DNA of 41,597 nucleotides from a virus (Duplodnaviria > Heunggongvirae > Uroviricota > Caudoviricetes). The DNA lies in the IMG/VR virus record IMGVR_UViG_2703718828_000001, positions 1 through 41,597 of that record. The stretch is one strand, 5' to 3'. The notes beneath the pieces are model-generated. The model made no database searches, was not told the DNA's origin, and worked only from the letters and a program-made list of their open reading frames with translations. Below, in pieces: positions 762 through 40,408 of this stretch (the first letter of the stretch is position 1; every line of letters begins with the position of its first letter). A program made the translations under genes and the position numbers.

Positions 762-1031
762 TTAAGGTTTATAGAACGCGCAAGATGAGCATCCACCACG
801 GAGGCCATCATTGCAGGTACGACATCTTTTTGTTTCTGTGTGATAGAGCTGGTGGATCATTTCTTTCGGCATCATCACGGGCATCGGCACTCTGATAACC
901 AGCTTCTTGAGCCTGTCTATCTCGTCTGCCTGCTCCATCACTCTGGCGTGTAGGTCTTTGGCTTCTGCCATCCACCAGGCTACATCGGCCTTAAGGCGGC
1001 GCGAACGCCGCTGTTTGAGTTTGCTGGTCAT
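762..1031 (-). CDS. Hypothetical early protein with Cys-rich C-terminus
   Basis: ATG at 1031 overlaps the TGA of the upstream gene; C-terminal CRTCNDGLRGGCSSC. Confidence 0.45.
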   Translation of the reverse strand: MTSKLKQRRSRRLKADVAWWMAEAKDLHARVMEQADEIDRLKKLVIRVPMPVMMPKEMIHQLYHTETKRCRTCNDGLRGGCSSCAFYKP

Positions 1032-1423
1032 GGTTGCTTGCCGAATATCCATTGGTTGCCAGCATGCGCCTGGAACTTAACGGAGGTATCAGGAAGCAAC
1101 AGTTCCTGCACCACCTCGCCAGACTCGACAAAGTAGTAATTGCTGTCAGTGACATTGTTAATAAATAAACCCTGTCGTTCAGCCTCACTGAGTTCGCCAA
1201 TTATTTTCATGACTTTTTTACGAATCGGACGATAGTCTGGCTCTATCCCGGCCAACTTGGCAGCTGCATAGTTATGGTGGCCATCCATCAAAATGGTGTA
1301 TTGCTGTCCACGAAGGACTATCGGATAGACAGAAACGATGAATCGTTTAAACCTGATTGCACGATCCGCAACTTTTGCGTTATCAAGATATCGCTGGCTG
1401 CTAATAAGCTTTCCTTTGATCAC
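1028..1423 (-). CDS. ParB-like nuclease domain protein (tentative)
   Basis: GTG start at 1423 preceded by AGGAGG; motif ILMDGHHNYAAAKLAGIE. Confidence 0.45.
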   Translation of the reverse strand: MIKGKLISSQRYLDNAKVADRAIRFKRFIVSVYPIVLRGQQYTILMDGHHNYAAAKLAGIEPDYRPIRKKVMKIIGELSEAERQGLFINNVTDSNYYFVESGEVVQELLLPDTSVKFQAHAGNQWIFGKQP

Positions 1424-2235
1424 GGCTTCACCTCCTGCTGCGGTGCTGCAGGCAGCGGCATCCAGTGGGTTATCTCACTGCTCTGGAATTGCGCTTGTAA
1501 TTCGCTCTTGATGAACCACACAGGCCCTTGCCGTTTGCTTTCGCTCCACCACCCCCAATAATTTCCGTCAGTTTCAGGCATCCGCTCACTGCAAGCCACC
1601 CAACCATCCGGAATCACCGGAGAGTTGCCAGCGGCTAACTTCCTGTTCAGCTCCAGCGCCACCATAGCGATGGTCGATGTCGTGAGTGAGTGCATGTGAG
1701 GATTGCTTGCTACAGCCTCCAACCAAACGAGGTCGTTGAATCGATCGAAGTCAAAATCCTCGGGCAACCTGCATTCCTTCGAAACAGGTTCGGCATCCTG
1801 AAGCATGGCGGCGCGGCAGGCTAACCAACATTGCCACATCTGATTAAGCACCCGCCCGGCATATCCAGTGCCGCTACGCATGAGCCTTGAGTCATAGTTC
1901 TCAGTAATCCACTTCTCGAAGGCTAGTCTTGAGAAGTCGAAATCATCAGGCACAGATGCCGGCGCTGGCGGGGCGGTGAATAGCGGTTGTACAGCAACGT
2001 CGCCATCTTGTGTCACAAACTTAGCGCGCGCCGGGTCATTGGTTACATGGTTCTTATCGCGATATTCCCACTGCCACGCAACGGGCTCAGCCGTCAGCGC
2101 TGCCAGCGTGATTTCTGCCAGGCGAAGATGGATAACTGCGGCTTCAGAGGCTCCAGGTATTCTCTCTACCGCACCGCGCAACACCGCGATATTTTTCTGA
2201 GCCTGATTGATCAACTGCTCTTTGGTGAATGTCAT
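1420..2235 (-). CDS. DUF551-like phage protein
   Basis: 271 aa; C-terminal GWVACSERMPE...WGWW motif; AAGGA RBS upstream of ATG at 2235. Confidence 0.55.
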   Translation of the reverse strand: MTFTKEQLINQAQKNIAVLRGAVERIPGASEAAVIHLRLAEITLAALTAEPVAWQWEYRDKNHVTNDPARAKFVTQDGDVAVQPLFTAPPAPASVPDDFDFSRLAFEKWITENYDSRLMRSGTGYAGRVLNQMWQCWLACRAAMLQDAEPVSKECRLPEDFDFDRFNDLVWLEAVASNPHMHSLTTSTIAMVALELNRKLAAGNSPVIPDGWVACSERMPETDGNYWGWWSESKRQGPVWFIKSELQAQFQSSEITHWMPLPAAPQQEVKP

Positions 2236-2245
2236 GGGTTAGTCC

Positions 2246-2509
2246 TTAGCCTGCGGTGCTCAATACACCAGATGGAAAATCTATCGTCTCATCAAAACCC
2301 GCACCTACTGACGCTACTGAAGTGCACCAGTCGCCAGAGGAGCGGTTATCTAGCGCGTCTTGCACCTCTTTATCCCGCCGCAGGTCATACAGAAAGATGG
2401 TCGGATCGCCGATGGTGTAAAAACCGATTTTCTTCGGTGAAGGGCAACGGTCGAGTACGGCTTGCAGCTCGTCTATCCATGCCCGCTCTTTTGCAGTTAA
2501 AGTAGCCAT
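2246..2509 (-). CDS. Hypothetical protein
   Basis: ATG at 2509 with GGAGG RBS; the longer 2246..2578 ORF would overlap the upstream gene. Confidence 0.45.
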   Translation of the reverse strand: MATLTAKERAWIDELQAVLDRCPSPKKIGFYTIGDPTIFLYDLRRDKEVQDALDNRSSGDWCTSVASVGAGFDETIDFPSGVLSTAG

Positions 2510-2510
2510 A

Positions 2511-3053
2511 TCACCCCTCCCCGTTGATGCGGATGCCAGTAGCGGCTGCGGATTCGTCATGCGCGCGTTTCGCGGCATTTAGAATTACCGCCAGAATTAC
2601 CGCCAGTGAGGTGTGCGCGCCATCCAGACGAATCGTGTTATGAATGGCTGCCATTGCCTCGCGCAGATTGCTGTGGCTCGCCTCCAGCTCAGCAATCCGT
2701 TTGCGTGCCGCTGTGAGTTCTGCCATGTGCTCACGGAGGCTGTCAGTTGCTGCTTCCAGCTTGTCCCAATCAGGATTGAAGTTTGCCAACTGCGCGAGCT
2801 GGTCTTTCAAAAAGCTGATGCTCTTGTCTTTGGCTTCCAGCTCATCCAGCAGCGCCAGTACGGTGGCGGGGTTGGCAGCGGCGATGAATACTGAATCAAC
2901 CTTGAGGCAGTGCTGGGCTATTGCTTTTACCCCGACCTTGACCTCGTAGCCCCGCGCGCCTTTGTGTGGGTGATATGATTCCCAGCGGCCCCATGATGCT
3001 TTGTTTGCTGCATCTGCCGTTTCACGTAATGCGATTTTGTCGATGTTGCTCAT
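2511..3053 (-). CDS. Ea22-like coiled-coil early protein
   Basis: 180 aa, heptad-rich (LDELEAKDKSISFLKDQLAQL..., ELEASHSNLREAMAA); ATGA overlap with upstream gene. Confidence 0.5.
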   Translation of the reverse strand: MSNIDKIALRETADAANKASWGRWESYHPHKGARGYEVKVGVKAIAQHCLKVDSVFIAAANPATVLALLDELEAKDKSISFLKDQLAQLANFNPDWDKLEAATDSLREHMAELTAARKRIAELEASHSNLREAMAAIHNTIRLDGAHTSLAVILAVILNAAKRAHDESAAATGIRINGEG

Positions 3054-3733
3054 TGGGCTGCTCCTTCCAGTGAATCAGGCAGTTTTGTGTAATGCGTGAC
3101 GCCTCGCAGTGAATTGATAGAGCGGGAGTGGTCTGCAAGCCAGATTTTGTGGATATTGGTGTCGCTGCCTGCGCAGAAGTTGTGTTCCATCCACTTCGCG
3201 GAGCAGTATTGTGGGCCAACATCCGTTTCGTAGCGCACCCAATAGCGTCCAAACTCTGCCGGTTGATTGCCTTCAATCCAGACCTGCGTCCGCACTTCAG
3301 CCAGGTAGGCGTCGGTGGCCGGGGTTTCAACGCGGAAGTAAACCGGATCGCCGCCTTCAAAGTTACCAGGGTCATCGACCAGTGTTTCGTGCTCATCAGC
3401 AGAGTAGACCTCCTGACGAAGCAGTCCATGCTTCAGTGCCAGCTCCTGTATTTCCGCACCATCAGCGGAGCCACCTTGCCAAGCGATAGAGAGCAACGCA
3501 TCGACGAACGCCTTCAGCCCCGCATTCTCCGCAGCCATCGCCGCTAACCTGGCTTCCAGATTCTCAATGGTGATTTCTAACTGGCGACCGTAGCGTGAGG
3601 ACTCGGTGAGCAACTGATCTGACAGTGAGAGCTTGCGCACCAGGTAGGCAGAAAGCGTTTCACCAACCAAGAGATCGGTTGGAATGCACTTACCATTAAG
3701 AAGACCATTCATTTCTGTAATCGTAAATTTCAT
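3050..3733 (-). CDS. Hypothetical early-left protein
   Basis: 227-aa ORF, translationally coupled on both sides. Confidence 0.5.
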   Translation of the reverse strand: MKFTITEMNGLLNGKCIPTDLLVGETLSAYLVRKLSLSDQLLTESSRYGRQLEITIENLEARLAAMAAENAGLKAFVDALLSIAWQGGSADGAEIQELALKHGLLRQEVYSADEHETLVDDPGNFEGGDPVYFRVETPATDAYLAEVRTQVWIEGNQPAEFGRYWVRYETDVGPQYCSAKWMEHNFCAGSDTNIHKIWLADHSRSINSLRGVTHYTKLPDSLEGAAQ

Positions 3734-4560
3734 GCTGATGCTCCTGAACGGCTTGAGGCGATAGCTTTATGCTCGTCGATGATTTCCTGTACTTCTGCAT
3801 GAGCTAAACCTTTGAGAGTTATCACTCCTGTGTTACTGATTCCTGCCAGGCTTACCAGCTCAACCAGACGTCGCGCTTTCTTCACACTGATTTCGGGAGA
3901 AATGACGCTGCGGGTGACTTTCTTTTTCCCTTTAGCTGCAGCAGCAGCCTTGTCTTGTTGAAGCACATCTCCAGCCTTTTCGCCGTACTCTTTCACACGG
4001 CCAACAGCAACCTCGACAGAGACGGCCCCTGATTTAACCTCACGCTGAACATCATGATTAGCGGTACTGAGAAGCAGGAGTTTTTCGACGGTGGGCACAG
4101 ACTTATTGACCAGCTTTGCGATCTCGCTGGTGGTCTGGTTAAACGCGTTATGCAGTTCCTGGATAACCGCGGCCTGTTCCATATCGGATAATGGAAGCTG
4201 GTTATTGCTGGTCATGATGCGAGCCAGGCGCTGAACATCGTTACCGTTGAAAGGCATGATGTGGATGCGGTCTACAGGCTTTCCTGCTTCAGCGCAGCGA
4301 GCATAGCAACGACGACGGCGGTGACCTTCGACAACCCACACCCCACCTTCATCACGGGCGATAACTTCCAGCGGAGGTACTGAGCCACCATTCATCAGAT
4401 ATTCGAACAGGTCATCATCAGCCAGGCGGGTACGATCATCGTTGTCGTCACGCTTGTTGAAACCTTCGCGCACGTGGATATCGTCGAGACTGATGAACAT
4501 GCCGGTGTCGGTACGCTTGATGGTTCCGTCACGAGACATCAATTTAAATGAGTTGGCCAT
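3730..4560 (-). CDS. ParB N-terminal domain protein with helix-turn-helix
   Basis: ParB box-like VVEGHRRRRCYARCAEAG followed by HTH-like TSEIAKLVNKSVPTVEKLL; ATG at 4560 overlaps upstream TGA. Confidence 0.65.
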   Translation of the reverse strand: MANSFKLMSRDGTIKRTDTGMFISLDDIHVREGFNKRDDNDDRTRLADDDLFEYLMNGGSVPPLEVIARDEGGVWVVEGHRRRRCYARCAEAGKPVDRIHIMPFNGNDVQRLARIMTSNNQLPLSDMEQAAVIQELHNAFNQTTSEIAKLVNKSVPTVEKLLLLSTANHDVQREVKSGAVSVEVAVGRVKEYGEKAGDVLQQDKAAAAAKGKKKVTRSVISPEISVKKARRLVELVSLAGISNTGVITLKGLAHAEVQEIIDEHKAIASSRSGASA

Positions 4561-4919
4561 CACGCAACACCTTCGCTTAATACAGTCAGGGTTACAGGCG
4601 TGAGTTCGCGCAGTTCTCGCTGTGCTTCCAGCAGGTGCATATTGCTGCGGGTTTTGGTGTGACGCTCAACAATGCGATCGCACTCCTTGGCCCAGCTCGT
4701 AACGTCATCCCGAAGGGTGGCATTTTCAGCAGCAAGTTCCTTGCGCTGTTTCATTGCCTCGCACAGCGCCACGCTGGTGTAATCCAGGCGGTTCGCCAGT
4801 TCGGTCATCAGCTGAGCTGAAGCAACAGGCAGAAACTTAGCTGCGGTACGAGCTGCATCGATCAGTTGCTCGCGGGTCAGGCGTGGTTGTAACTCGGTGA
4901 CGTTCTGTGTGTTCGTCAT
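4560..4919 (-). CDS. Hypothetical protein
   Basis: ATG at 4919 with GGAG RBS (track ORF begins at an upstream GTG at 4952). Confidence 0.5.
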   Translation of the reverse strand: MTNTQNVTELQPRLTREQLIDAARTAAKFLPVASAQLMTELANRLDYTSVALCEAMKQRKELAAENATLRDDVTSWAKECDRIVERHTKTRSNMHLLEAQRELRELTPVTLTVLSEGVA

Positions 4920-4969
4920 TGTTAGTTTCTCCGTTATATAAGCGCTCTGCACAGCGCTGATTTTTGGCC

Positions 4970-5230
4970 TTACAACTTAAAAGAGGCCGCCTTGGTCTTT
5001 CGGGGTGTTGCGTTTTCGTTTAGTGATTTCGGTTTTAGAAACCTGCTTATCTGCCCAGGCTTTCGCATGCCGTAACACGTCGTCAAAAATCGCGCCTTTC
5101 TTGCTTGCCTGTGACATGCGTTTATACAAATCAAGCGCCTGCCACGCCCCCCCTGAGCCACCGAAGAGGAAAAGCCCTGTTTGATGAGCAATTCCTTCAC
5201 GTTCTTCTCAATAAATTCGAGGTGGTTCAT
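4970..5230 (-). CDS. Hypothetical protein spanning a C7 homopolymer; possible frameshifted or dual-frame gene
   Basis: ATG at 5230 with GGAGG RBS; two frames stay open for ~57 codons downstream of the homopolymer at 5147-5153. Confidence 0.4.
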   Translation of the reverse strand: MNHLEFIEKNVKELLIKQGFSSSVAQGGRGRRLICINACHRQARKARFLTTCYGMRKPGQISRFLKPKSLNENATPRKTKAASFKL

Positions 5231-5374
5231 CAGTCCTCCAGTGGAAAATCCGCTGAATTTTGGTTGCACGAATCCCTCGCCTGGTGGCGACTAAAAATAA
5301 AGGGGTTTCGTTTTAGTAAGCACCCAGCCTGGGCACTTAGTGAAACGGGCGACTGCAATCGCCTGTTAGCTTCT

Positions 5375-5459
5375 CCACAACTGAGAGCGCGTTCCGCTCG
5401 AAATTGCATTTAACGAACTGACACTTAGGTTAAAGGTCCAGAACGCGCTTTCAGTTGTG
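5375..5459. repeat. 19-bp inverted repeat (one mismatch) with ~46-nt spacer in the leftward early transcript
   Basis: ccacaactgagagcgcgttc at 5375-5394 versus gaacgcgctttcagttgtg at 5441-5459. Confidence 0.6.
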
Positions 5460-5564
5460 TAAAAGGGGCGGTCGACATAAGGACATTCAGAACTGCCGAC
5501 CGCCAAGACTACACACAGCATTTGTTGCAGTTACTACGGGTTTACCACGCTGGCTACGTGATAC

Positions 5565-5641
<77 letters not shown>

Positions 5642-5818
5642 AACTGGGAGCGCACTCCGCTTTTGTTTCACACCTGTCATCCACACTGGTTGATAAGGAG
5701 TACGCTCTCATGTTGTACGCCTGTCTTTTAACCACATCAGGCTCGGTGGATCCTGCTATTCCCCAACAACAAGGATTCGGTTAATCTGAAATCCCCAACA
5801 TTTGGATAGTGATCACGC

Positions 5819-6055
5819 ATGAAGCGCTCAGATGTTTTAACCCAGTGCCTTATTAATACCGGCTGCGGGCTTTCAGAAGCTGATATCCGACACGGCATCC
5901 GGACTACCTTCTCTGAAGAGTACCCAGATAAAAATTACGATTCCTGGGACATTGAGATCAGCGATCAGACAGCAAATCACATCATTAAAACCGTTGGCCG
6001 TGCTATGTGGATAAAAGTCGACCTATTTATCCGTGATCTCTGGGACGCCTACTGA
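5819..6055 (+). CDS. Hypothetical small protein, antisense to the leftward operon (uncertain)
   Basis: 78-aa ORF with weak RBS; 3' end overlaps the convergent minus-strand gene. Confidence 0.3.
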   Translation: MKRSDVLTQCLINTGCGLSEADIRHGIRTTFSEEYPDKNYDSWDIEISDQTANHIIKTVGRAMWIKVDLFIRDLWDAY

Positions 6056-6271
6056 TCCCAAAGGGGCGGAGCCAATCCCTCTAAAACCGGTCGCCATAGT
6101 GCGACCACATTTGTTGGCTTCAGCCTCCAAAGAGGTTTTATCTTTCTCCAGCGCTTCAATAACACCGCCCATAAACAATAGGTAATCGGCTGCGACTGCT
6201 GACTCTGTGAGTAAGGTCTGCTTCAGAACCCCATTAACCAAAAGCTCAATCCTGTTTGCGCTTGAACTCAT
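6023..6271 (-). CDS. Hypothetical protein, first gene downstream of pL (the position lambda N occupies, but not Arg-rich)
   Basis: ATG at 6271 with GGAG RBS; MSSSANRIELLVNG.... Confidence 0.45.
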   Translation of the reverse strand: MSSSANRIELLVNGVLKQTLLTESAVAADYLLFMGGVIEALEKDKTSLEAEANKCGRTMATGFRGIGSAPLGSVGVPEITDK

Positions 6272-6349
6272 CACCACTCCATCATGTGCCATATGCCGTT
6301 CTGCTTATTCTCCGCAGTTTCTGAATGATATTTCCTGCGGTACGAGATA

Positions 6350-6402
6350 AATGTAGGATAACTTACCTTTGGCTGTCAATACTAAAAGTAGGAAATCTTA
6401 CA
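6350..6402 (-). promoter_or_regulatory. pL-like leftward promoter with OL operator copies
   Basis: On minus strand a -35 TTGACA (plus 6374-6379), 18-bp spacer and -10 TACATT (plus 6350-6355); operator-like GTAGGATAACTTAC (6353-6366) and GTAGGAAATCTTAC (6389-6402). Confidence 0.6.
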
Positions 6403-6413
6403 TTTAGAGGTGG

Positions 6414-6440
6414 AAAAAAACCGACTGGATGTCGGCTTTT
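6414..6440 (-). terminator. Rho-independent terminator after the repressor gene
   Basis: Hairpin ccgac-tggat-gtcgg flanked by an A7 run (T7 on minus strand) just past the cI stop. Confidence 0.6.
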
Positions 6441-6452
6441 GAAAAGAGGGGG

Positions 6453-7109
6453 CTATAGGTCGGTTACAACTTGTTTTACGACACCAACAAGTTTGCAGTT
6501 TCCGTTTACTTCCAAAACTCGATAGTTTGGGTTCAGTGGTACTAGATACTTCAGTGGGCCATCGATGACAAACTTTTTTAAAGTTGCTTCAGTTGAGCCT
6601 TCAATTTGTGCCACAACGATCTTGCCATTTACTTCTTCAGGACTTCCATAGTCGGGGTCCACCACGACAAATGAACCTTCCGGTATACTGGGGGCGCCAT
6701 TAGGATTCGTCATCGAGTCACCACGAACGCGTAAAGCGAACCCCTCATCAGATATACACGCAGTAGTGAAAATCCACTCTGATATATCATTTTCGGTAAC
6801 TGGGGCGCCACTTTCAGTCCATTCGCCAGCCTGTACCCAAGACAAGACAGGTATTTTTTTTACACCAAACTTCTCAGTGGGCTTGAAGGTTGACTCACCA
6901 GTATCAGCATCACCGTTGCCAGTAATGATCCACTGTGGGTTAGTCTTTAACGCAGCCGCTAGTGCCTGAAGGTTCGACCCTCCCGGTTCATAGTCTCCGG
7001 ACTCCCACCCTGTAACAGTCACGCGATTTACTCCAACTAATTTGGATAAAACCGCTTGGGTAAGTTTCAGCTCTTTTCGCCGAGCGCGTATGCGTTCATT
7101 CATTTTCAT
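6453..7109 (-). CDS. cI: cI-like repressor (HTH plus LexA-type S24 autopeptidase domain)
   Basis: MKMNERIRARRKELKLTQAVLSKLVGV HTH; C-terminal GDSMTNPNGAPSIPEGSFVVVD motif; divergent from cro across the operator region. Confidence 0.85.
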   Translation of the reverse strand: MKMNERIRARRKELKLTQAVLSKLVGVNRVTVTGWESGDYEPGGSNLQALAAALKTNPQWIITGNGDADTGESTFKPTEKFGVKKIPVLSWVQAGEWTESGAPVTENDISEWIFTTACISDEGFALRVRGDSMTNPNGAPSIPEGSFVVVDPDYGSPEEVNGKIVVAQIEGSTEATLKKFVIDGPLKYLVPLNPNYRVLEVNGNCKLVGVVKQVVTDL

Positions 7110-7110
7110 G

Positions 7111-7175
7111 TAGGTAATCCTACCATTTTGTGATGTAGGAATCCTTGACCTAATAATGTAAGATATCCTACTATG
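7111..7175. promoter_or_regulatory. OR operator cluster with divergent PRM/PR promoters
   Basis: Three related palindromic sites: taggtaatccta (7111-7122), taggaatcct (7136-7145), taagatatccta (7158-7170); PR -35 TTGACC at 7145-7150 and -10 TACTAT at 7169-7174. Confidence 0.65.
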
Positions 7176-7208
7176 ATGTTGTCTGCATCTCTTACATATG
7201 GAGTGAAA

Positions 7209-7406
7209 ATGAAAAAAAATGATGTGATTTCTTACTTCGGTAGCGTTGGCAATGTAGCCAAAGCTTTGAACATCTCCCACGCTTCGGTTTCTGGATGGGG
7301 CGAAATCATACCGAAAGGCCGCGCTTTCGAAATTCAGGCGCTTTCTAAAGGGGCCCTCAAAGTAAACCCTTCACTTTATTTAAAGGCTAATTCATCAGCC
7401 GCTTAA
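7209..7406 (+). CDS. cro: Cro-like small DNA-binding regulator
   Basis: 65 aa starting MKKNDVISYFGSVGNVAKALNISHASVSGW (HTH-like); first rightward gene after OR. Confidence 0.65.
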   Translation: MKKNDVISYFGSVGNVAKALNISHASVSGWGEIIPKGRAFEIQALSKGALKVNPSLYLKANSSAA

Positions 7407-7431
7407 TCATAACTACCAAAGGGAAAACATA

Positions 7432-7977
7432 ATGGTAGACAGCATAAACACAGCGATTCGCCTTATGTGCAAGGCACACAAACACGGTCGTGTAGGCCTG
7501 GCTGCTGATCTTGGCATGACCATCGATCAATTTCACAACCATCTGTACCAAAAATGCGGCAGTCGTTTTTTTACGGTAGTCGAACTTGAACAGATGCAAT
7601 CCATTTCCGGCACGTCTTATCTGGCTGAGTATTTCGCTAAGTGCTGCGGAAAAATGCTGGTGGACATTCCTGTACCTGAGAGCATCGACAATGTCGATTT
7701 GTATGAAATCGATATGAAAGCGACGGTCGCAGCTGGCGAACTGGCTTCAGCAAAAGTTGCAGCTATTGCTGATGGTGTAATCGATATGAAAGAACGCCAG
7801 ACACTTTCCGATTTATTCAACAAGAAGTTGCGTCACCAGATTCATGGGTTTCTGGGGTTCATGGCGCTGTATGGGGTGAGCGTATCGGATCAGGCAGTGG
7901 ATGTTTTTATTTCTACCGGCAGAAAAGGTGACGCCCCGAGTGTGCAGCTCGGAGCGTCTGGCGCGCCGGTTCTTTAA
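7432..7977 (+). CDS. CII-like regulatory protein (CP76-type, tentative)
   Basis: 181 aa, directly downstream of cro with AAAGGGA RBS; assignment mainly by position. Confidence 0.45.
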   Translation: MVDSINTAIRLMCKAHKHGRVGLAADLGMTIDQFHNHLYQKCGSRFFTVVELEQMQSISGTSYLAEYFAKCCGKMLVDIPVPESIDNVDLYEIDMKATVAAGELASAKVAAIADGVIDMKERQTLSDLFNKKLRHQIHGFLGFMALYGVSVSDQAVDVFISTGRKGDAPSVQLGASGAPVL

Positions 7978-7993
7978 GTGGAGAAACTAACGC

Positions 7994-8332
7994 ATGAACA
8001 GTTTAAACCGATTCAGGCCAGCTAAGCAATTCAGATGCCTGCCGCTGAAGGGGAAAAGCTCCCCGTTCGGCTATGTGGAAAGAGTACACAGCGCTGGTGG
8101 TGCCAACAACTACCAGTCGTGTTCAGAAATGGTAGCGGCATTTGCTCTGATGAACGAGAAGGGGCGTGAGGAATGGCTGAAGTTGACCGGAGGTTCAGAG
8201 ACCACAGAGGAATCCCTGTGCGGGTCATCCGATGGGAGCCAGCCACACGCCGCGTTATATACCTTCGCGAAGGGTACGATCATGAGTGCTTCAGCCCTCT
8301 TGAGCAATTCCAGCGCAAATTTACAGAGTTAA
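7994..8332 (+). CDS. Hypothetical protein (uncertain; alternative frame 8173..8385 also open)
   Basis: 112-aa ORF with GGAG RBS ending just before the O-like gene. Confidence 0.3.
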   Translation: MNSLNRFRPAKQFRCLPLKGKSSPFGYVERVHSAGGANNYQSCSEMVAAFALMNEKGREEWLKLTGGSETTEESLCGSSDGSQPHAALYTFAKGTIMSASALLSNSSANLQS

Positions 8333-8341
8333 AGGACTGCC

Positions 8342-9268
8342 ATGAGCCTGTTAATGCCATCCCGGCCGATAGTGATAAACCCTGACCTTGCATACAGCAT
8401 TGGCCTGAACGAGGCAATTGCGTTGCAGCAGGTGAACTACTGGCTGAAAGAAACAAACTCCGGTCTGGAGCGTGACGGCGTGCGCTGGATATATAACACC
8501 AACGAGCAGTGGCTGGAGCAGTTCCCGTTCTGGTCAGAGTCTACCCTGAAGCGCACCTTCACCCGCCTGAAGACTCTCGGCGTGCTCAAAATTGAGCAGC
8601 TGAATAAGTCTCAGCGCGACATGACGAACTACTACACGATCAACTACGAAAGCGAGCTTTTAGATGAGGTCAAAGTGACCAAATCGAAGAGTTCAAAATG
8701 CACTCGTCCATCAGGTCAAAATGAACCGATGGAAGAGGTCAAGGTGGAACACTCCATCGGGTCAAAACGAACCGCTGTCATCAGGTCAAATTGCACTGAT
8801 GTTCTTACAGAGAATACAACAGAGATTACTACAGAGAATAAAACCCCTTCTTGTCCGGTTGCGTCGCAACCAGACCGTGAAGTGTTGATCACTGATCAGG
8901 CCAAATCGGTGTTATCTCACCTGAACCAGGTCACGAACTCACGGTTCCAGGTATCAACCACATCCCTGCAGAATATCCGCGCCCGTATCGGCGAGGGGTT
9001 CACCGTGGAAGAGCTGCAGCTGGTGGTCGATTACTGCAACGCCAAATGGGCTGATGATCTGAAAATGTCCGATTACCTTCGCCCCCAGACGCTTTTCCAG
9101 CCGACCAAGTTCCCTGGCTACCTGAAGTCTGCTAACAACTGGTCAAAAGCTGGTAAGCCTGCACGGGTTAACGGTGAGTGGGCGAGGGAAGAGGGCGTAT
9201 TCAAATCGAGTTTCCAGAACACCAACTACGGCAAGATCCCCGCTGGTTTCAGAGGAGCTAACTCATGA
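8342..9268 (+). CDS. Replication initiator, O-like (replisome-organiser N-terminus, conserved phage C-terminus)
   Basis: N-terminal IVINPDLAYSIGLNEAIALQQVNYWL; C-terminal MSDYLRPQTLFQPTKFPGYL; iterons lie inside the gene as in lambda O. Confidence 0.65.
   Translation: MSLLMPSRPIVINPDLAYSIGLNEAIALQQVNYWLKETNSGLERDGVRWIYNTNEQWLEQFPFWSESTLKRTFTRLKTLGVLKIEQLNKSQRDMTNYYTINYESELLDEVKVTKSKSSKCTRPSGQNEPMEEVKVEHSIGSKRTAVIRSNCTDVLTENTTEITTENKTPSCPVASQPDREVLITDQAKSVLSHLNQVTNSRFQVSTTSLQNIRARIGEGFTVEELQLVVDYCNAKWADDLKMSDYLRPQTLFQPTKFPGYLKSANNWSKAGKPARVNGEWAREEGVFKSSFQNTNYGKIPAGFRGANS
8668..8790 (+). repeat. Putative replication origin: six direct iterons at ~23-bp spacing, followed by an AT-rich tract
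   Basis: GGTCAAA-type repeats at 8668, 8691 (GTTCAAA), 8714, 8737 (GGTCAAG), 8760 and 8784; then ACAGAGA repeats at 8805-8845. Confidence 0.65.
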
Positions 9269-9759
9269 GCCTTTTGAAAAACATTCAGCTGTTCATCACA
9301 AACAACCCTGGCCTGACCAACAAGCAGCTGGCGGCATCAATGCCACAGTTTGACGTTCACGCCGTGCAGCGTGGCGTATGTCACCTGGTAAAACTTAACC
9401 GCGCCACACGTAAGCATAACGGCAAGTGCTACCAGTATTTTGCTGAGCCACCAAGCGGAGCGGTAGGGGAAGTGATTTCCCGCGTGAAAATTGACAGAGC
9501 CCAGAGCACTACTGACGCGGAACAAGAAGCCGTATCAAATCCGGCAGTAGCTGCAATGCTGCTGAAAGCGAAGGGGCTGACTGAAAAGGGTTTGTATCAG
9601 CGTGCGGCGACAGTCCTGATGGAGGCTTTCAACCGTTCTAAGAACGAGGATGTGCGCGAAAAGATTCTGGTTGAGCGCCAGAAATGCCTCAGCCAGGTTC
9701 ACAAGCCGAAAGCACCAACGGATTCATGGTGTCTGGCTGGCAGGGGGAGAAACGTCTGA
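9265..9759 (+). CDS. Hypothetical protein in the replication module
   Basis: 164-aa ORF, AGAGGAG RBS, coupled to flanking genes. Confidence 0.45.
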   Translation: MSLLKNIQLFITNNPGLTNKQLAASMPQFDVHAVQRGVCHLVKLNRATRKHNGKCYQYFAEPPSGAVGEVISRVKIDRAQSTTDAEQEAVSNPAVAAMLLKAKGLTEKGLYQRAATVLMEAFNRSKNEDVREKILVERQKCLSQVHKPKAPTDSWCLAGRGRNV

Positions 9760-10418
9760 TGAAATATTCACTGATTTACGCCGATCCAGCCTGGGAATAT
9801 GGCAACACCATCAGCAACGGTGCAGCAGAGAACCACTACGGCACGATGAAGCTGATCGACATGAAACGTCTTCCTGTGTGGGAGCTGGCTGCCGAAGATG
9901 CCGTTCTGGCCATGTGGTTCACCGGCACTCACACACGTGAGGCTATCGAACTGGCTGAGGCGTGGGGCTTTAAGGTTCGCACGATGAAGGGGTTCACCTG
10001 GGTGAAGCTGAACCAGTTGGCTGAGCAGCATATTAACAAAGCCCTTCAGGCTGGTGGCGTAGAGGACTTTTACGACTTCCTCGACCTGCTCAATGTGCAG
10101 ACCCGGATGAACGGTGGCAACTCCACCCGCGCTAATACCGAAGACCTGCTGATCGCCACCAGAGGGAAGGGCCTCGAACGCATGAACGCCAGTGTGAAAC
10201 AGGTTATCTACAGCCCTCTTGGTGAGCACAGCGAAAAACCAGCAGAGGCTCGTTTCCGTCTGGAGCAGCTTTACGGCGACGTTCCGCGCATCGAACTTTT
10301 CAGCCGCTGCGGCGCGCCTGGCTGGGATCACTGGGGAAATCAGGCTGAGCGCCCAGCAGTTCATTTGTTGCCAGGTGTTGTCTGCGCCATCGACTGGGCT
10401 AAAGAGGATCTTGCATGA
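9759..10418 (+). CDS. DNA N6-adenine methyltransferase, MT-A70/phage Dam-like
   Basis: Start MKYSLIYADPAWEY carries a DPAW variant of the (D/N)PP(Y/W) catalytic motif; ATG at 9759 overlaps upstream stop. Confidence 0.65.
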   Translation: MKYSLIYADPAWEYGNTISNGAAENHYGTMKLIDMKRLPVWELAAEDAVLAMWFTGTHTREAIELAEAWGFKVRTMKGFTWVKLNQLAEQHINKALQAGGVEDFYDFLDLLNVQTRMNGGNSTRANTEDLLIATRGKGLERMNASVKQVIYSPLGEHSEKPAEARFRLEQLYGDVPRIELFSRCGAPGWDHWGNQAERPAVHLLPGVVCAIDWAKEDLA

Positions 10419-10633
10419 ACCAGTCCATCGAGAACGCCATTCAGGCAGAAGCGAAGCGCTGCAGCGAAGCCATCAAGTCAGCGATGAAGGCAAAGCCACG
10501 ACCAAAGTTCGACAGCATCAGCAAGCCCTTGCTCAGCATGCACTATGCGAAGGTAAAACCACTCGGCGTGTCCTTCATCAAATTCGTCAGTGTGATTGGA
10601 CGCCTTAACGGGCGCTATGGAGTGGACTCATGA
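10415..10633 (+). CDS. Hypothetical small protein
   Basis: 72-aa ORF with ATGA overlaps on both sides. Confidence 0.45.
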   Translation: MNQSIENAIQAEAKRCSEAIKSAMKAKPRPKFDSISKPLLSMHYAKVKPLGVSFIKFVSVIGRLNGRYGVDS

Positions 10634-10950
10634 ACCATTTAACGCCCCGTCAAAGTGAAGTTCTGGATGCAATAGTGCTCTACAAGGATAGAACCGGATT
10701 CCCGCCGACGATTCTGGAGCTTGCCGGTTTAATTGGCTGTGCATCACCTAATGCTGCTGCCGAGCATGTGAAGGCGCTTAAGAAAAAAGGTTACATCTCA
10801 ATTGCTCCTGGCGCTGCCAGGGGGATTACCGTAGTCAAAACGGAATGGGATGCAGAACCTGTAACGATCATTAAAGAGCTGCTATCCGGTGGAGAAAATG
10901 CCAGAGATAACGCTGTGGAATGGCTGAAAAAGCAGGGAGTGACGTTATGA
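10630..10950 (+). CDS. LexA N-terminal DNA-binding domain protein lacking the peptidase domain
   Basis: TPRQSEVLDAIVLYKDRTGFPPTILELAGLIGCASPNAAAEHVKALKKKGYI closely parallels the LexA winged-helix N-terminus; only 106 aa, no S24 domain. Confidence 0.65.
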   Translation: MNHLTPRQSEVLDAIVLYKDRTGFPPTILELAGLIGCASPNAAAEHVKALKKKGYISIAPGAARGITVVKTEWDAEPVTIIKELLSGGENARDNAVEWLKKQGVTL

Positions 10951-11333
10951 AACTTGTTCTCCCGTTTCCACCGAGCGTAAACACCTACTGGCGAGCCCCG
11001 AACAAGGGACCACTGAAAGGCCGTCACCTCATTAGCGAAAAGGGCAGGGCATACCAGAGTGCAGCTTGTTCGGCTATTGTCGATCAGCTGCGCCGCCTTC
11101 CAAAACCCTCCACCGCACCGGCGGCAGTGGAAATTCTTCTTTTCCCACCCGATGCGCGTCGCCGCGACATCGACAACTACAACAAAGCGCTGTTCGACGC
11201 GCTGAGCCACGCAGGGATCTGGGAGGATGACAGCCAGATTAAGCGAATGGTGGTGGAGTGGGGGCCAGTAACGCAGAAAGGAAAGGTTGAAATCACGATC
11301 AGTAAGTACGAACCGGCGGGTGCAGCCGCCTGA
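10947..11333 (+). CDS. rusA: RusA Holliday-junction resolvase
   Basis: MKLVLPFPPSVNTYW...RRDIDNYNKALFDAL matches the RusA family; about 128 aa. Confidence 0.85.
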   Translation: MKLVLPFPPSVNTYWRAPNKGPLKGRHLISEKGRAYQSAACSAIVDQLRRLPKPSTAPAAVEILLFPPDARRRDIDNYNKALFDALSHAGIWEDDSQIKRMVVEWGPVTQKGKVEITISKYEPAGAAA

Positions 11334-11348
11334 TAAGTGGAGAAGAGC

Positions 11349-12074
11349 ATGAACCAGATGAACGCAACCGTAATGTGTCAGACCCATCATGCAGCAGCTA
11401 TGGCGCAGCAAATAACGATGTCCAGTCGCGAAATTTCTCAGTTGGTGGATTCTCGTCACAGCAATGTATGCGTGACCATTGAGCGGCTCATGAACAGCGG
11501 TGTTATTGGGGGGTATGCTGCAATGCAGTACACCCATCCCCAGAACGGGCAGGTTTACCATTACTACGAAGTTAACAAGCGAGACAGTTATGTGATCGTT
11601 GCCCAGCTCTCGCCAGAGTTCACGGCTCGTCTTGTTGACCGCTGGCAGGAGCTGGAAAGCAGCGGGAGAATGGTGGTACCGCAATCATTGCCTGAAGCCC
11701 TCAGGTTAGCGGCTGACCTCGCTGAGCAAAAGCAGCGCTTGAGCGAAGAGCTGGCGATTGCCGCACCTAAAGCAGAGTTTGTTGATCGTTATGTCACGGC
11801 AACCGGCTCAATGACTTTTCGACAGGTTGCGAAGCTGCTCAATGCCAAAGAGCCTGAGTTTCGCCTGTTCCTGCTGGATCATCACATCATGTACCGCCTG
11901 AGCGGCGTTCTTACCCCATATCATCAGCATATTGAGTCTGGCCGCTTCGAAGTTAAGACCGGTACAACCAACGCTTCGAATTATGCGTTCAGCCAGGCCC
12001 GCTTCACGGCGAAAGGGGTCAAGTGGATTGGTGGTCTTTGGGCTGAGCACACCGCTAAGGGGCAAATGACGTGA
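11349..12074 (+). CDS. Phage antirepressor, Rha-type N-terminus with KilAC-like C-terminus
   Basis: ITMSSREISQLVDSRHSNVCVTIERL (Rha-like) and a C-terminal antirepressor-like segment. Confidence 0.65.
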   Translation: MNQMNATVMCQTHHAAAMAQQITMSSREISQLVDSRHSNVCVTIERLMNSGVIGGYAAMQYTHPQNGQVYHYYEVNKRDSYVIVAQLSPEFTARLVDRWQELESSGRMVVPQSLPEALRLAADLAEQKQRLSEELAIAAPKAEFVDRYVTATGSMTFRQVAKLLNAKEPEFRLFLLDHHIMYRLSGVLTPYHQHIESGRFEVKTGTTNASNYAFSQARFTAKGVKWIGGLWAEHTAKGQMT

Positions 12075-20215: not shown

Positions 20216-21493
20216 ATGGCAGATACCGATTACAGCATTGACCTGCGAACGCGATCGCCATTCTGGGCGCGCATGGCCTCCATCCTGACCGGTGGCAGAC
20301 TGGTTACACCAGAGAAAGGCTCTCAGATGGCTGGCACCTCTGCGCACGGCGTTGTTGGTGAATCCGTTGTCACTGATGAGCGAAACATGCAAATCAGCAC
20401 GGTGTGGGCCTGTATCCGTCTCATTTCTACAGTCACTGCATCTTTACCGCTTGATGTTTACGAAACCAAAGACGATCAGCGCAGCAAGGTTCCTGGCAAC
20501 CATCCTCTCGCAAAACTACTGAGGTTTCGGCCAAACAATTTCATGACCGCACTGGAGTTCCGCGAAGCCATGACCATGCAGTTGTGCGCCTACGGTAATG
20601 CTTACGCGCATGTGGAGCGAAACAGCGTCGGCGACGTTATCAGTATGGTTCCTCTGATGAGCGCCAATATGGAAGTGCGGCTCAGTGAAAACGGCAAAAC
20701 CATTATCTACCGCTATCGTCGTGACACGGAATACGCCAACTTTTCACAGAAAGAAATTTTCCATCTCAAGGGATTTGGCTTCAATGGGCTAACCGGCCTG
20801 TCTCCGCTGGCGTTCAGCGCGAAGTCTGCAGGTGTCGCCATTGCCATGGAAGATAATCAGCGTGAGTTCTTCGCGAACGGCGCGAAGTCTCCGCAGATCC
20901 TGATGACTGATGGCAAGGTGCTGACTAAAGAGCAGCGCGGTCAGCTGGAGGAGAACTTTAAGGAGATTGCAGGCGGACCGGTTAAAAAGCGGTTGTGGAT
21001 CCTGGAGAGCGGGTTTACTACGCAGGCTATAGGGGTTTCGCCTCAGGATTCGGAAATACTGGCTGCACGAAAATTTCAGGTCGCCGAACTGGCCCGCTTT
21101 TACGGTGTTCCTCCGCATCTGGTCGGCGATGTTGATAAAACCACCTCCTGGGGATCGGGAATTGAGCAGCAAAACCTGGGCTTTCTTCAGTACACGCTAA
21201 AACCCTACCTTGACCGCTGGGAGTACAGCATTGAACGCTGGCTGGTGAAAGAGTCAGAGCAGGGCGCTATTCATGCCGAACATAACCTCGACGGGCTGTT
21301 ACGCGGCGACTCAACAAGCCGGGCATCCTTCATGCAGATCATGGTCAATACCGGCATTCGCACCGTTAACGAGGTTCGACGGCTGGATAACCTGCCACCA
21401 CTGCCCGGCGGTGACGTGGCGACGCGCCAGTCGCAGAACGTACCCATTACCGATCTTGGATCAAGCAAAGAGCCCCGCAATGACGGGGCTTAA
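20216..21493 (+). CDS. Portal protein, HK97 family
   Basis: 425 aa; follows terminase; FYGVPPHLVGD segment. Confidence 0.8.
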   Translation: MADTDYSIDLRTRSPFWARMASILTGGRLVTPEKGSQMAGTSAHGVVGESVVTDERNMQISTVWACIRLISTVTASLPLDVYETKDDQRSKVPGNHPLAKLLRFRPNNFMTALEFREAMTMQLCAYGNAYAHVERNSVGDVISMVPLMSANMEVRLSENGKTIIYRYRRDTEYANFSQKEIFHLKGFGFNGLTGLSPLAFSAKSAGVAIAMEDNQREFFANGAKSPQILMTDGKVLTKEQRGQLEENFKEIAGGPVKKRLWILESGFTTQAIGVSPQDSEILAARKFQVAELARFYGVPPHLVGDVDKTTSWGSGIEQQNLGFLQYTLKPYLDRWEYSIERWLVKESEQGAIHAEHNLDGLLRGDSTSRASFMQIMVNTGIRTVNEVRRLDNLPPLPGGDVATRQSQNVPITDLGSSKEPRNDGA

Positions 21494-37421: not shown

Positions 37422-38597
37422 ATGCTTTATACCATCGGCACAATATCTGTTAACGGAAATACCGCCACCGGCACCGGTACAAACTGGACGGCACCTGCCA
37501 GCCAGATTCGTCTCGGCCAGACCCTGGTGGTACTTTCTAATCCCGTTCAGCTGTTCCAGATTACCGCCATTAACAGTGCAACCTCGTTAACAGTAACGCC
37601 TGCAGCGTCACCCGCGGTGAGCGGTCAGAAGTACGGCATTCTGGTGACAGATGCCTTGTCAGTCGATGGCCTGGCACAGAGCATTTCGCAGCTCATTAAC
37701 GAGTACGACGAGAATATTGGCGGCTGGGAAACGTTCGCCACTACCTCAGCAAACCAGAACATTACGGTCACCATCAACGGTAAAGCAGTCACCATTCCCG
37801 CTATTGGTAAGTTGCTCCAAAAGGGAGGCAATGGCGCTCTTGCGGTTGCTGACGGAGGAACTGGAGCAAAGACCGCGGCAGATGCAAGGGTGTCCTTTGG
37901 ATGGGTTAATGACATGCTTCCTGTTGCACTTGGGGGGACCGGATCTGCGGATGCCTCTGGGGCTCGAACTAATCTCGGTCTTGGCGAGAGCAGTAACCTA
38001 AAATTTGCGGGGATGACTATTGAAAGTAATAGCTATACCTCTATCGTTGTCAGAAATACATCGCGTCAGTCTGACGATGTGGGATCTCAGGTAAGCTTGG
38101 AGGTTTCCCCATCAGCAGGCGGCAGACCATATTTTACGCAACGCAGTAATTCAGGTTCTAATACTGGCCAGGCTGTGAATAATTTACCAACCTCATCAGG
38201 CGTGCTCGCCATACAGGGGACCTCGGGGCTAATGTACAAACGCGATATATCTCCGGCACCGTTAAGCGATGCCGTAGAACGAATTGCTGCTCTTGAGATG
38301 GTAAATTTCACCTATAAAGATGATGAACAAAACAGGGTAAGGTTTGGGATTATTGCGGAGCAGGCAGAGGCCGTGGCACCTCAGTATATCAAGCACAATC
38401 TGGAGCCAGATCCTGATGTCATTTATAAAGCAAACGAACTTGATGATGAAGGACGCCCACTAAATCCTGTAATGCGCGACAGGCCTTCAATCGACAACAA
38501 CCCAATCGTTATGGATTTACTGGGAGCGGTTCAGTTTTTGCACCAGCAGGTTCTTGAGCTGAAAAGCAAACATGAGGCTGGGGATGTTCAGCAGTAA
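37422..38597 (+). CDS. Side tail fibre with C-terminal intramolecular chaperone (peptidase S74-like)
   Basis: C-terminal RFGIIAEQAEAVAPQYIK motif typical of self-cleaving chaperone domains; Gly/Thr-rich N-terminal region. Confidence 0.7.
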   Translation: MLYTIGTISVNGNTATGTGTNWTAPASQIRLGQTLVVLSNPVQLFQITAINSATSLTVTPAASPAVSGQKYGILVTDALSVDGLAQSISQLINEYDENIGGWETFATTSANQNITVTINGKAVTIPAIGKLLQKGGNGALAVADGGTGAKTAADARVSFGWVNDMLPVALGGTGSADASGARTNLGLGESSNLKFAGMTIESNSYTSIVVRNTSRQSDDVGSQVSLEVSPSAGGRPYFTQRSNSGSNTGQAVNNLPTSSGVLAIQGTSGLMYKRDISPAPLSDAVERIAALEMVNFTYKDDEQNRVRFGIIAEQAEAVAPQYIKHNLEPDPDVIYKANELDDEGRPLNPVMRDRPSIDNNPIVMDLLGAVQFLHQQVLELKSKHEAGDVQQ

Positions 38598-38641
38598 TGA
38601 TTAATAGGCGGTCCAGCATTGATCTGCCCTCACTTTAAAAC

Positions 38642-38661
38642 TACTGTATATAAAAACAGTA
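38642..38661. promoter_or_regulatory. Near-consensus LexA (SOS) box
   Basis: TACTGTATATAAAAACAGTA matches TACTGTATATATATACAGTA at 18 of 20 positions; ~18 bp upstream of the ATG at 38679. Confidence 0.7.
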
Positions 38662-38678
38662 TAAATGGAGTGTGGATC

Positions 38679-38918
38679 ATGCCCCGCAAATCAGACCTTC
38701 GCGCCGCTTTCGTTGCCGCCGTGCACAAAAACCCGAAAGGGTATCAGTGCCTGCGCACCGCTGACTTTATCAGGGAGCTACGCGCCAGAAACTGGCATTT
38801 CACAGAAACTGACGCCAATGAATGGATAGAACGATACCAGGCTGGCTTTGTAGATAAAACACCCGACGACAGCCAGAACCGGCTCTGGATAATGCGCAAT
38901 ATGGGGTACATACGATAG
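38679..38918 (+). CDS. Hypothetical small protein, first gene of the putative SOS-regulated pair
   Basis: 80 aa from ATG at 38679 with GGAGTG RBS. Confidence 0.5.
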   Translation: MPRKSDLRAAFVAAVHKNPKGYQCLRTADFIRELRARNWHFTETDANEWIERYQAGFVDKTPDDSQNRLWIMRNMGYIR

Positions 38919-39235
38919 TGGGCTTCGTCTCGCCGGCGGGCGACTATATCGAGCGCAGGTTAAATCCCGAGGATATGCTCACGACAGATCAGAGCCGTAT
39001 CGTCGAAACGGCTACCGGCTATGCCGTGATTGAGCCGGTGACAAAACTTTCGCAGGGGCAGGTGCTGCTAATTCTGTGTGGTGGGTATACCCAGTTTGCG
39101 AAACTACAGGGCCGATCGTTAATCACTGATGATGGCGAAGCGTTAGAAGGTGAGGCCATGGAAGAGGCAGAAGTAATGGGCAGGGTGACGTATTTCATCA
39201 ATCGCACTATACGGGGTGATGACTGTCCGGTTTAA
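38918..39235 (+). CDS. UmuD'-like protein, apparently pre-cleaved and lacking the catalytic Ser
   Basis: Starts at GTG with GFVSPAGDYIERRL, matching the UmuD segment just after its Cys24-Gly25 cleavage site (GFPSPAADYVEQRI); SGDSM position replaced. Confidence 0.5.
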   Translation: MGFVSPAGDYIERRLNPEDMLTTDQSRIVETATGYAVIEPVTKLSQGQVLLILCGGYTQFAKLQGRSLITDDGEALEGEAMEEAEVMGRVTYFINRTIRGDDCPV

Positions 39236-39370
39236 CTGTAAGTTCGCCCAGAATTCTTTCGCCATTGAGATTTTTAACCAACAGTAACTTACTGATCTTG
39301 CATTAGTTCAATACGCAAAACAATGGCGAAAAAATCATGTAAGTTTATGATTAATCTGAATAACACGCAT

Positions 39371-39427
39371 GATTTAAAATCCCTCGGCGTTCGCGCTGTG
39401 CGGGTTCAAGTCCCGCTCCGGGTACCA
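39371..39427 (+). other. 3' fragment of tRNA-Leu(UAA): prophage attR core
   Basis: GATTTAAAATCCCTCGGCGTTCGCGCTGTGCGGGTTCAAGTCCCGCTCCGGGTACCA equals the leuZ-type tRNA from anticodon loop to CCA; upstream sequence is not tRNA. Confidence 0.75.
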
Positions 39428-39469
39428 TGGGAAACATCAGAATAATCAAAGCAATAAGCAGTGTCGTGA

Positions 39470-39492
39470 AACCACCTTCGGGTGGTTTTTTT
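39470..39492 (+). terminator. Rho-independent terminator (likely the original tRNA terminator)
   Basis: aaccacc-ttcg-ggtggtt followed by T-tract. Confidence 0.6.
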
Positions 39493-39667
39493 GTGCATGC
39501 AATTCACGCCCTGTGCATATCCTGTGCTCACGGGGTGCAATGAGCTGCAATCTACAGCCTGGCAATGCCGAATTGAACGTGTCGCCTCCAGCATAGAGAA
39601 CCAGGTTGCTTTGCCTGTTTTCCGGTACTCTTCCGGGAAGGGGCCCTGCTGAGCAAGCTGTAATGCT

Positions 39668-40408
39668 CTAGCCACCCTGAGTACAAAGTTGCTTAATTCG
39701 TGCAATCACCTCATCTCTGTACTTCTGGTGTCCGCGCATAGCCCTTGGATGGGCAATTCTGAAACAGATTGCATTACCTGTTTTGAACTCCCACAGCTTC
39801 TCCGGAATGACTGAAGAAGTCTCATAGCCGCCCAGCTCAGTAAGCACCTGTTTTATGATGTAGTCTGTTCTCCGGGCTCCGGATGCAAAGATGATGAAAT
39901 CAGGCTCAAGGTGTTTAATTTGTACCGCCAGCAGCTTCAGCGAGGCTAATATGACTTCCTGCACTTCATTTTGAGGGCGATTGAGAGGGGTCAGTCCGTC
40001 GTAATCCCACGCCAGTAGATTGGCATACACGATTGCCTGGGGAAGAATATTAAGCTCCCGGGCCAGCCTGAAATGATATTGCGTGAAGCGGCTACGTGAT
40101 TTGAGGTTGGTGGTGCCATAATTTTGTACCGGAAGATGTTTCCTGTAACGATCTACAGCTTCTTCAACCACCTGCCCGATGGTGACGTCAGGTATAAGTC
40201 CCAACACCCGTGATATCGTATTCTTACCATTCAGCGTATTCCAGCCAGCGGTTTCACGTCCAACCAGCATGATTTTTACCGGTGAGTGCCAGTATTCTTC
40301 AAAGGGTACGGGTAAAAATACGCCTGAGTATTTATCCTCATTCAGGTTAAATGACTGGGCGTTAACTTCCTGCAATATCCGTTTGTACGCGTCTAATAGC
40401 TTTTCCAT
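39668..40408 (-). CDS. Hypothetical protein at the island junction; uracil-DNA-glycosylase-like motifs (tentative)
   Basis: 246 aa; KIMLVGRETAGW resembles UDG motif A and a C-terminal HPRA resembles motif B. Confidence 0.4.
   Translation of the reverse strand: MEKLLDAYKRILQEVNAQSFNLNEDKYSGVFLPVPFEEYWHSPVKIMLVGRETAGWNTLNGKNTISRVLGLIPDVTIGQVVEEAVDRYRKHLPVQNYGTTNLKSRSRFTQYHFRLARELNILPQAIVYANLLAWDYDGLTPLNRPQNEVQEVILASLKLLAVQIKHLEPDFIIFASGARRTDYIIKQVLTELGGYETSSVIPEKLWEFKTGNAICFRIAHPRAMRGHQKYRDEVIARIKQLCTQGG

Follow-up and report, generated by a model that had tools for sequence, protein, structure and literature searches.

A predicted LexA-controlled operon for a shortened HumD/UmuD' relative and a winged-helix protein, next to attR of a lambdoid prophage

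Phage homologues of UmuD' that are made in the pre-cleaved form have been known since HumD of phage P1 and gp26 of phage N15. According to the RefSeq annotation of P1, HumD complements UmuD'; N15 gp26 and phiKO2 gp23 are annotated as UmuD homologues. The members of this HumD family (P1 HumD, N15 gp26, phiKO2 gp23 and HK140 gp28) start at the equivalent of UmuD Gly25, the first residue past the Cys24-Gly25 cleavage site, have a LexA box directly upstream, lack a umuC partner gene and have the tail-fibre genes on one side and att or par on the other, often with dinI as a neighbour. A locus with the same properties is described here from the IMG/VR virus record IMGVR_UViG_2703718828_000001 (Caudoviricetes; positions 1 to 41,597, the whole of which is called the window), a lambdoid siphovirus prophage inserted in leuZ. 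Its operon at 38619-39235, placed between the tail-fibre gene and attR, encodes a winged-helix protein of 79 amino acids (aa), ORF1, and a protein of 105 aa, ORF2, which from its alignments appears to be a shrunken, enzymatically dead member of the phage HumD/UmuD' lineage. The recognition of such proteins is not new: mEp390 gp26, Eho59 gp24 and PHROG 3469 already carry the label 'UmuD-like' (database annotations only), belong to the same family and show the same two-gene arrangement without material difference, ORF2 being 45-62% identical to the members from cultured phages, and LexA sites are annotated in P1 and phiKO2. Apparently unreported are that the short family, with arm and tail retained, lacks the catalytic loop and the mapped contact residues, that the promoter of the operon copies the umuDC promoter, and that ORF2 usually travels with a winged-helix gene. 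The features of the operon are as follows.

38619-38624, plus strand: -35 hexamer TTGATC, identical to the umuDC promoter block
38642-38647, plus strand: candidate -10 hexamer TACTGT, behind a 17-nt spacer and overlapping the left half of the LexA box
38642-38661, no strand assigned: LexA (SOS) box TACTGTATATAAAAACAGTA, with two mismatches to the consensus TACTGTATATATATACAGTA
38667-38670, plus strand: Shine-Dalgarno sequence GGAG for ORF1, read from the sequence, with GGAG or GAGG at the same spot in relatives
38679-38918, plus strand: ORF1 (gene 1), ATG start with GGAG 8 nt upstream, 79-aa stand-alone winged-helix protein of PHROG 3893
38918-39235, plus strand: ORF2 (gene 2), GTG start, 105-aa shortened and, as predicted, catalytically dead HumD/UmuD' member of PHROG 3469

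ORF2 matched PHROG 3469 ('UmuD-like protein') over residues 1-103 of 105 (E 1e-38). Regarding the general family collections, the match to NCBIfam HumD (NF051876) covered residues 1-27 only (E 2e-6, 27.9 bits against a cutoff of 120), NCBIfam PRK10276 yielded 15 bits against a cutoff of 110, and neither Peptidase_S24 nor any other Pfam family was hit by ORF2 (E values up to 1) or by ORF1. Comparison with the HumD family using hhalign gave an E value of 1.6e-12 for the N-terminus of ORF2, 3e-10 for residues 85-105 against HumD 106-129, and 8e-13 for a global alignment of all 105 residues with 24 gap positions, which bears out the likeness to P1 HumD proposed in an earlier note made on this DNA from its letters. 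In searches of the PDB (phmmer, hmmsearch) the family profile aligned residues 2-39 of ORF2 with UmuD 25-63, and the single sequence reached residues 2-51. ORF2 has the S24/LexA-like beta-barrel fold of UmuD (AlphaFold2 model with a predicted local distance difference test score, pLDDT, of 72). The alignment to UmuD and HumD, which the earlier note had named as a check, returned three blocks common to ORF2 and the four HumD-family proteins listed above, namely MGFPSPAxDYVE (arm), VFGVITYxIN versus VMGRVTYFIN (last strand) and DDCPV (C-terminal tail); this tail is absent from UmuD.

The N-terminus of ORF2, MGFVSPAGDYIERRL, matched UmuD residues 25-38 and HumD residues 1-15, in agreement with the earlier claim that the protein begins at the post-cleavage end of UmuD. 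It starts at Met-Gly in the post-cleavage position, with no propeptide, as do all but a few members of its family, and within the family consensus MGF(V/P)SPAxDYVE residues M1, G2, F3, S5, P6, A7, D9, Y10 and E12 were invariant or nearly so. The arm of E. coli UmuD' is nearly identical to that of ORF2 (GFVSPAGDYIERRL versus GFPSPAADYVEQRI). Since Met1 in front of Gly2 should be removed, mature ORF2 would start exactly like UmuD'. ORF2 differs from E. coli UmuD' in that it is synthesised as such, with neither a propeptide nor a cleavage that depends on RecA*, in that it has no Ser60/Lys97 dyad, no match to Pfam Peptidase_S24 and no adjacent umuC, and in its extra acidic C-terminal tail. In the published AlphaFold model of DNA polymerase V (Pol V), one UmuD' arm lies beside the active site of UmuC; UmuD' without its arm is inactive in mutagenesis, and changes of single N-terminal residues matter (PMC11791011).

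The tail of ORF2 is encoded at 39222-39235; the HumD family ends in ..GEFDDCPVI, the short family in ..DDCPV and some of its members in ..DDIPTI. The C-terminal tip of SSB reads ..DDDIPF, which the acidic tail of HumD and the short family resembles, and an imitation of the SSB tip by this tail is a speculative possibility.

With ~129 aa, the proteins of the HumD family are longer than ORF2. In the global alignment a deletion of 12 residues in ORF2 takes away the Ser/Thr loop with Ser60, further deletions total ~11 residues, and UmuD Lys97 is aligned with Ala61, which is nearly invariant in the ORF2 family, the adjacent Lys62 being not conserved. ORF2 is thus without the Ser60-Lys97 catalytic dyad, as had been suspected for the serine. 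The loss of the catalytic loop, of Lys97 and of ~24 residues relative to HumD would also be expected of a decaying umuD or humD remnant without present function, and truncated or odd relatives are on record, e.g., the protein P0220 and matches of 72 residues in Klebsiella phages. Set against this, ORF2 homologues formed 511 clusters (240 representatives at 50% identity), nearly all of 104-107 aa, 30 alignment columns were invariant among 35 diverse members, and the operator and the translational coupling to ORF1 are conserved. ORF1 homologues (82 clusters) were nearly all of 79 aa, with 17 invariant columns. The ratio of nonsynonymous to synonymous substitution rates (dN/dS) was ~0.13 for each gene, a value resting on 12 of 76 pairs because dS was saturated in the others. 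Both genes thus appear to be under purifying selection, which contradicts decay; a remnant is disfavoured and in our view scarcely credible.

The relative P0220 (L098 2958-3383, Logan SRR32251491) has 141 aa and joins the short dead core to a UmuD-like propeptide with a Cys-Gly site (..FIRPAELREIIALTLFSDSMQC|GFTSPAADY). It is chromosomally encoded beside a LysR regulator, has no LexA box and has a divergent C-terminus, on which grounds it was treated as a remnant; alternatively, it may represent an evolutionary intermediate.

Residues of UmuD that contact RecA* comprise Y52, V54 and F94, which form a pocket for RecA F203, and the acidic patch D91/E93 (PMC9926225), and UmuD S60, E93, T95 and K97 have been modelled to hold the C-terminal carboxylate of UmuC (PMC11791011). 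Nearly all of these residues are kept in the HumD family; in the relatives of ORF2 they are not, under either register of the alignment, and the RecA-contact positions are occupied by aliphatic residues, by Glu or Thr, and by non-acidic variable residues. As the mapping falls in the low-confidence centre of the alignment, these residue-level losses are provisional. They bear on the idea that ORF2 binds the RecA* filament, or acts as a decoy for it, by placing a dead S24 domain in the RecA groove, thereby tuning the cleavage of LexA, UmuD or the prophage CI; DinI, UmuD, LexA and the C-terminal fragment of lambda CI are the precedents for binding in the groove. S24 domains bind the RecA* groove (PMC9926225), in relatives a divergent dinI controlled by the same LexA box is often the neighbour of the ORF2 gene, the resident CI is itself an S24 self-cleaving repressor, and in the ORF2 family an acidic segment, DGEAIEGxAxEEVEV, is strongly conserved and predicted to contain a short helix. 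The RecA-contact residues of UmuD, however, are those that HumD keeps and the ORF2 family does not, and the P-side region of the cleavage site, another RecA contact, is absent from ORF2. We therefore regard a RecA* binder or decoy as unlikely, if worth keeping in mind.

Regarding the control of the operon, the region upstream of umuD in E. coli K-12 (tATTGATCTGCtggcaagaacagacTACTGTATATAAAAACAGTATAActt) was compared with the window (38617-38664 versus positions 705-752 of the K-12 record L084). Identical between the two are the 10-nt -35 block ATTGATCTGC, its distance of 15 nt from the box, and the box itself (20 nt) together with TAA; the sequence of the spacer and all sequence downstream differ. 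The umuDC box is a LexA operator established by experiment. Because promoter and operator are a near copy of those of umuDC, descent of the phage module from a umuDC operon is suggested. A generic sigma-70 scan did not call the operon promoter, so the promoter call rests on the identity with that of umuDC. The match of 18 out of 20 positions to the LexA consensus claimed in the earlier note was recovered: the box is the sole site with three or fewer mismatches in the 41.6-kb window, and no such site occurred in 100 shuffled sequences. The earlier description of a box ~18 bp upstream of an 80-aa frame holds for the box and the frame as such, with corrected figures of 17 nt from the end of the box to the ATG and 79 aa.

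A scan of IMG/VR with the ORF2 family returned no fewer than 560 loci; 80 of them were retrieved. A CTGT-N8-ACAG box was located 15-25 nt before the first gene in 78 of these, the remaining two carrying a point-mutated or a truncated box, and the first gene behind it was a homologue of ORF1 except in locus L030, which has ORF2 directly behind the box. The boxes comprised 33 different 20-mers in 64 distinct upstream segments, most of which had TTGATC, TTGACC or TTGCCC at a constant distance from the box within variable flanks; the annotated LexA sites of phiKO2 and P1 are at the equivalent place. A high-quality LexA box that overlaps the promoter is thus kept in orthologous loci, as in members of the SOS regulon, and LexA control of the operon is well supported in silico.

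The GTG start of ORF2 and the TAG stop of ORF1 overlap by one base (TAGTG), which confirms the coupling of the two frames noted before; relatives have ATG at the start position of ORF2, and the spacing of the two genes was 2-19 nt in 79 of the 80 IMG/VR loci. NCBI assemblies encode a protein identical to ORF1, and in them gene callers predict the same overlapping pair next to yecA. ORF1 matched PHROG 3893, a family of unknown function, over residues 1-77 of 79 (E 7e-39), and its AlphaFold2 model (pLDDT 89) showed a winged-helix topology. A PDB sequence search with ORF1 returned noise only, a BFVD fold search returned its own family only, and the PADLOC defence models matched neither protein of the operon. 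ORF1 showed no similarity to Tum of phage 186 (hhalign probability 0.1%) and no sequence similarity to LexA including its N-terminal domain, and with no Pfam match and a winged-helix fold it does not belong to the DinI family. Going by the model, ORF1 would be a generic winged helix without informative relatives. Helix 3 and the wing are acidic in the family alignment, which makes DNA binding not obvious. The 79-aa protein is named 'DNA polymerase V' in records of Erwinia phages and in a Citrobacter entry; no support for this name was found here, and it may have been carried over from the neighbouring gene. The RefSeq record of mEp390 omits the ORF1 homologue and has an antisense ORF of 42 aa called instead (the records with annotation problems are L003 2262-2495, which corresponds to mEp390 20749-20982, L094 2001-2243, and protein P0198).

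In its layout, a winged helix and then an S24 domain beginning at the post-cleavage Gly, the pair mirrors LexA, and together with the tight translational coupling (TAGTG; 2-19 nt in 79 of 80 loci) this raises the question whether ORF1 and ORF2 are the two halves of a split, 'pre-cleaved' LexA- or CI-like regulator cut at its cleavage site. We consider this very improbable: ORF1 does not resemble the N-terminal domain of LexA and has an acidic helix 3 and wing, no genuine ORF1-ORF2 fusions were found among the homologues, each of the two genes occurs singly, and N15, phiKO2 and P1 have a HumD gene without ORF1. Of the apparent fusions, P0246 is most simply explained from its sequence as a frameshifted read-through, and P0212 and P0216 look chimeric.

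The genes of the operon were found in the following arrangements.

ORF1 with short ORF2: mEp390, Eeyore, LAU1, Eho59, many Klebsiella phages and 79 of the 80 IMG/VR loci
ORF1 with a full-length HumD-like gene: HK140, in which the upstream 79-aa gene is the same as here
ORF1 alone: HK225
Short ORF2 alone, directly behind a LexA box: Kp4871-1 and L030
HumD alone behind the box: N15, phiKO2 and P1

A divergent dinI at the same LexA box was present in mEp390, HK140, HK225 and phiKO2 (L003, L085, L002 and L086) and in a minority of the IMG/VR loci; the window contains no dinI. The region from the tail fibre to att thus seems to behave as an SOS-regulated slot for interchangeable cargo (dinI, the 79-aa gene, and the long or short humD). 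Either gene of the pair can stand behind the same box without the other, and this modularity speaks against an obligate complex of ORF1 and ORF2.

SOS-controlled operons of small genes behind a LexA box at the prophage periphery are likewise known from phage 186 (tum), PSP3 and the Gifsy phages (dinI-antirepressor-irsA), and these also carry one relative of a RecA- or SOS-associated protein (PMC3121763); neither ORF1 nor ORF2 is related in sequence to Tum or DinI. The present operon could be an induction module of this type, in which one protein is an antirepressor of the repressor of its own or a co-resident prophage and the other modulates the SOS response. Pairs of an antirepressor and a RecA-binding protein under LexA are the rule in these phages (PMC3121763), the operon is peripheral to the immunity region, and ORF1, with a fold of the protein- or DNA-binding kind, is about as large as the Gifsy antirepressors. 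Such a role nevertheless appears improbable. The resident CI (minus strand, ~6453-7110) consists of a helix-turn-helix followed by an S24 domain carrying the GDSM and KK motifs, and should by these motifs be of the self-cleaving type that is cleaved unaided, so that an antirepressor is not required here; ORF1 has no detectable similarity to Tum, no Salmonella phage was among the 47 phage records hit by ORF1 in a tblastn search, and the module rides phages of differing immunity regions, with each gene also occurring alone.

The reading that we favour, with moderate confidence, is that of a LexA-repressed two-gene cargo operon whose ORF2 product acts on the Pol V of the host through its arm or through dimerisation with UmuD or UmuD'. 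LexA would silence the operon until DNA damage is substantial, and the box of the umuDC type, presumably a tight and late-released operator, would place its expression late in the SOS response. ORF2 without Met1 would expose the Gly-Phe end that RecA*-mediated cleavage makes on UmuD', and being made already with the UmuD' N-terminus it would need no activation by RecA. It may then insert its arm beside the active site of UmuC, or form dimers with UmuD or UmuD' of the host through the retained dimer elements. ORF1 would be a separate small winged-helix factor, co-transcribed without an obligate link to ORF2.

Several points weigh against this reading of an operon that acts on Pol V. The centre of the alignment to UmuD and HumD is of low confidence, which leaves the contact losses provisional; ORF2 is without counterparts of UmuD S60, E93, T95 and K97, which are modelled to bind the C-terminus of UmuC, and this may make canonical assembly of Pol V impossible; a tblastn search with UmuC of E. 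coli found no umuC in the window or in 85 related loci; a literature search returned no paper on the 105-aa subfamily (nor on the 79-aa partner); the reading assigns no role to ORF1; and a terminator scan gave no terminator-like site between the tail-fibre gene and the operon promoter, so that late read-through from the tail-fibre gene may also express the operon. The loss of the modelled docking residues for the UmuC tail weakens, as far as the alignment can be trusted, a plain HumD-like substitution in Pol V. As the contacts to RecA* and the UmuC tail are apparently lost, a role as modulator or dominant-negative of Pol V is slightly preferred here to one as activator of the HumD type. In its most specific form ORF2 would be an SOS-timed antagonist of Pol V, with the arm and the dimer elements kept and no docking to RecA* or the UmuC C-terminus, which would block the arm-binding site near the active site of UmuC or hold UmuD' in dead heterodimers. 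This form is tentative, a minority option that still deserves attention; if it is true, replicating phage DNA would be spared error-prone synthesis during induction.

The operon is situated at the prophage's right end. Lambdoid phages such as mEp390 match positions 1-12000 of the window. The tail genes end with a 391-aa tail fibre (37422-38597) bearing a Peptidase_S74 chaperone domain, 3' of which the sequence reads cATTGATCTGCcctcactttaaaacTACTGTATATAAAAACAGTATAAatGGAGtgtggatcATG. The right boundary is formed by the following features.

39371-39427, plus strand: 3' 57 nt of the tRNA-Leu(UAA) gene leuZ, the att core and right prophage boundary, identical to K-12 leuZ
39428-39495, plus strand: host 3'ETS-leuZ with terminator hairpin, aligned with the annotated K-12 3'ETS-leuZ

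Phage DNA stands in place of the 5' part of the tRNA, the sequence upstream of 39371 being unrelated to leuZ, and ARAGORN called no complete tRNA at 39371-39427. The distance from the ORF2 stop to the junction of prophage and host is 135 nt, in accordance with the position beside attR given in the earlier note. The terminator scan found no terminator-like site in 39236-39370, and the first terminator 3' of the operon is probably the 3'ETS-leuZ hairpin. With no terminator between the ORF2 stop and attR, the transcript of an SOS-induced lysogen may enter, and possibly release, 3'ETS-leuZ. An Rfam scan of 38500-39700 returned nothing relevant. An inverted repeat, TTCGCCATTG (39253-39267) and CAATGGCGAA (39321-39334), with its arms ~55 nt apart, is located between the ORF2 stop and the att core; no plus-strand T-run follows it, and it may belong to the attP arm. 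Just beyond attR lies an ORF of 246 aa (39668-40408, minus strand) with no match in Pfam or PADLOC; its position is occupied by yecA in E. coli K-12 and in the assemblies with the identical ORF1, which indicates that the host flank differs here. The early region of the prophage carries a tRNA-Arg(TCT) gene (5565-5641, minus strand).

Prophages of Enterobacter, Leclercia, Klebsiella, Escherichia, Citrobacter and Erwinia commonly carry the short subfamily, which is represented by at least 560 viral contigs. In its features the subfamily resembles a natural separation-of-function variant that has retained arm, last strand and tail and is without the catalytic site, the contacts to RecA and the modelled dock for the UmuC tail. 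The impact of the finding is moderate, as a known theme is refined and no new one is opened. The short family could nevertheless reveal which surfaces of UmuD' matter for the control of Pol V, and it bears on the direction, up or down, in which prophages shift damage-induced mutagenesis in hosts of clinical relevance.

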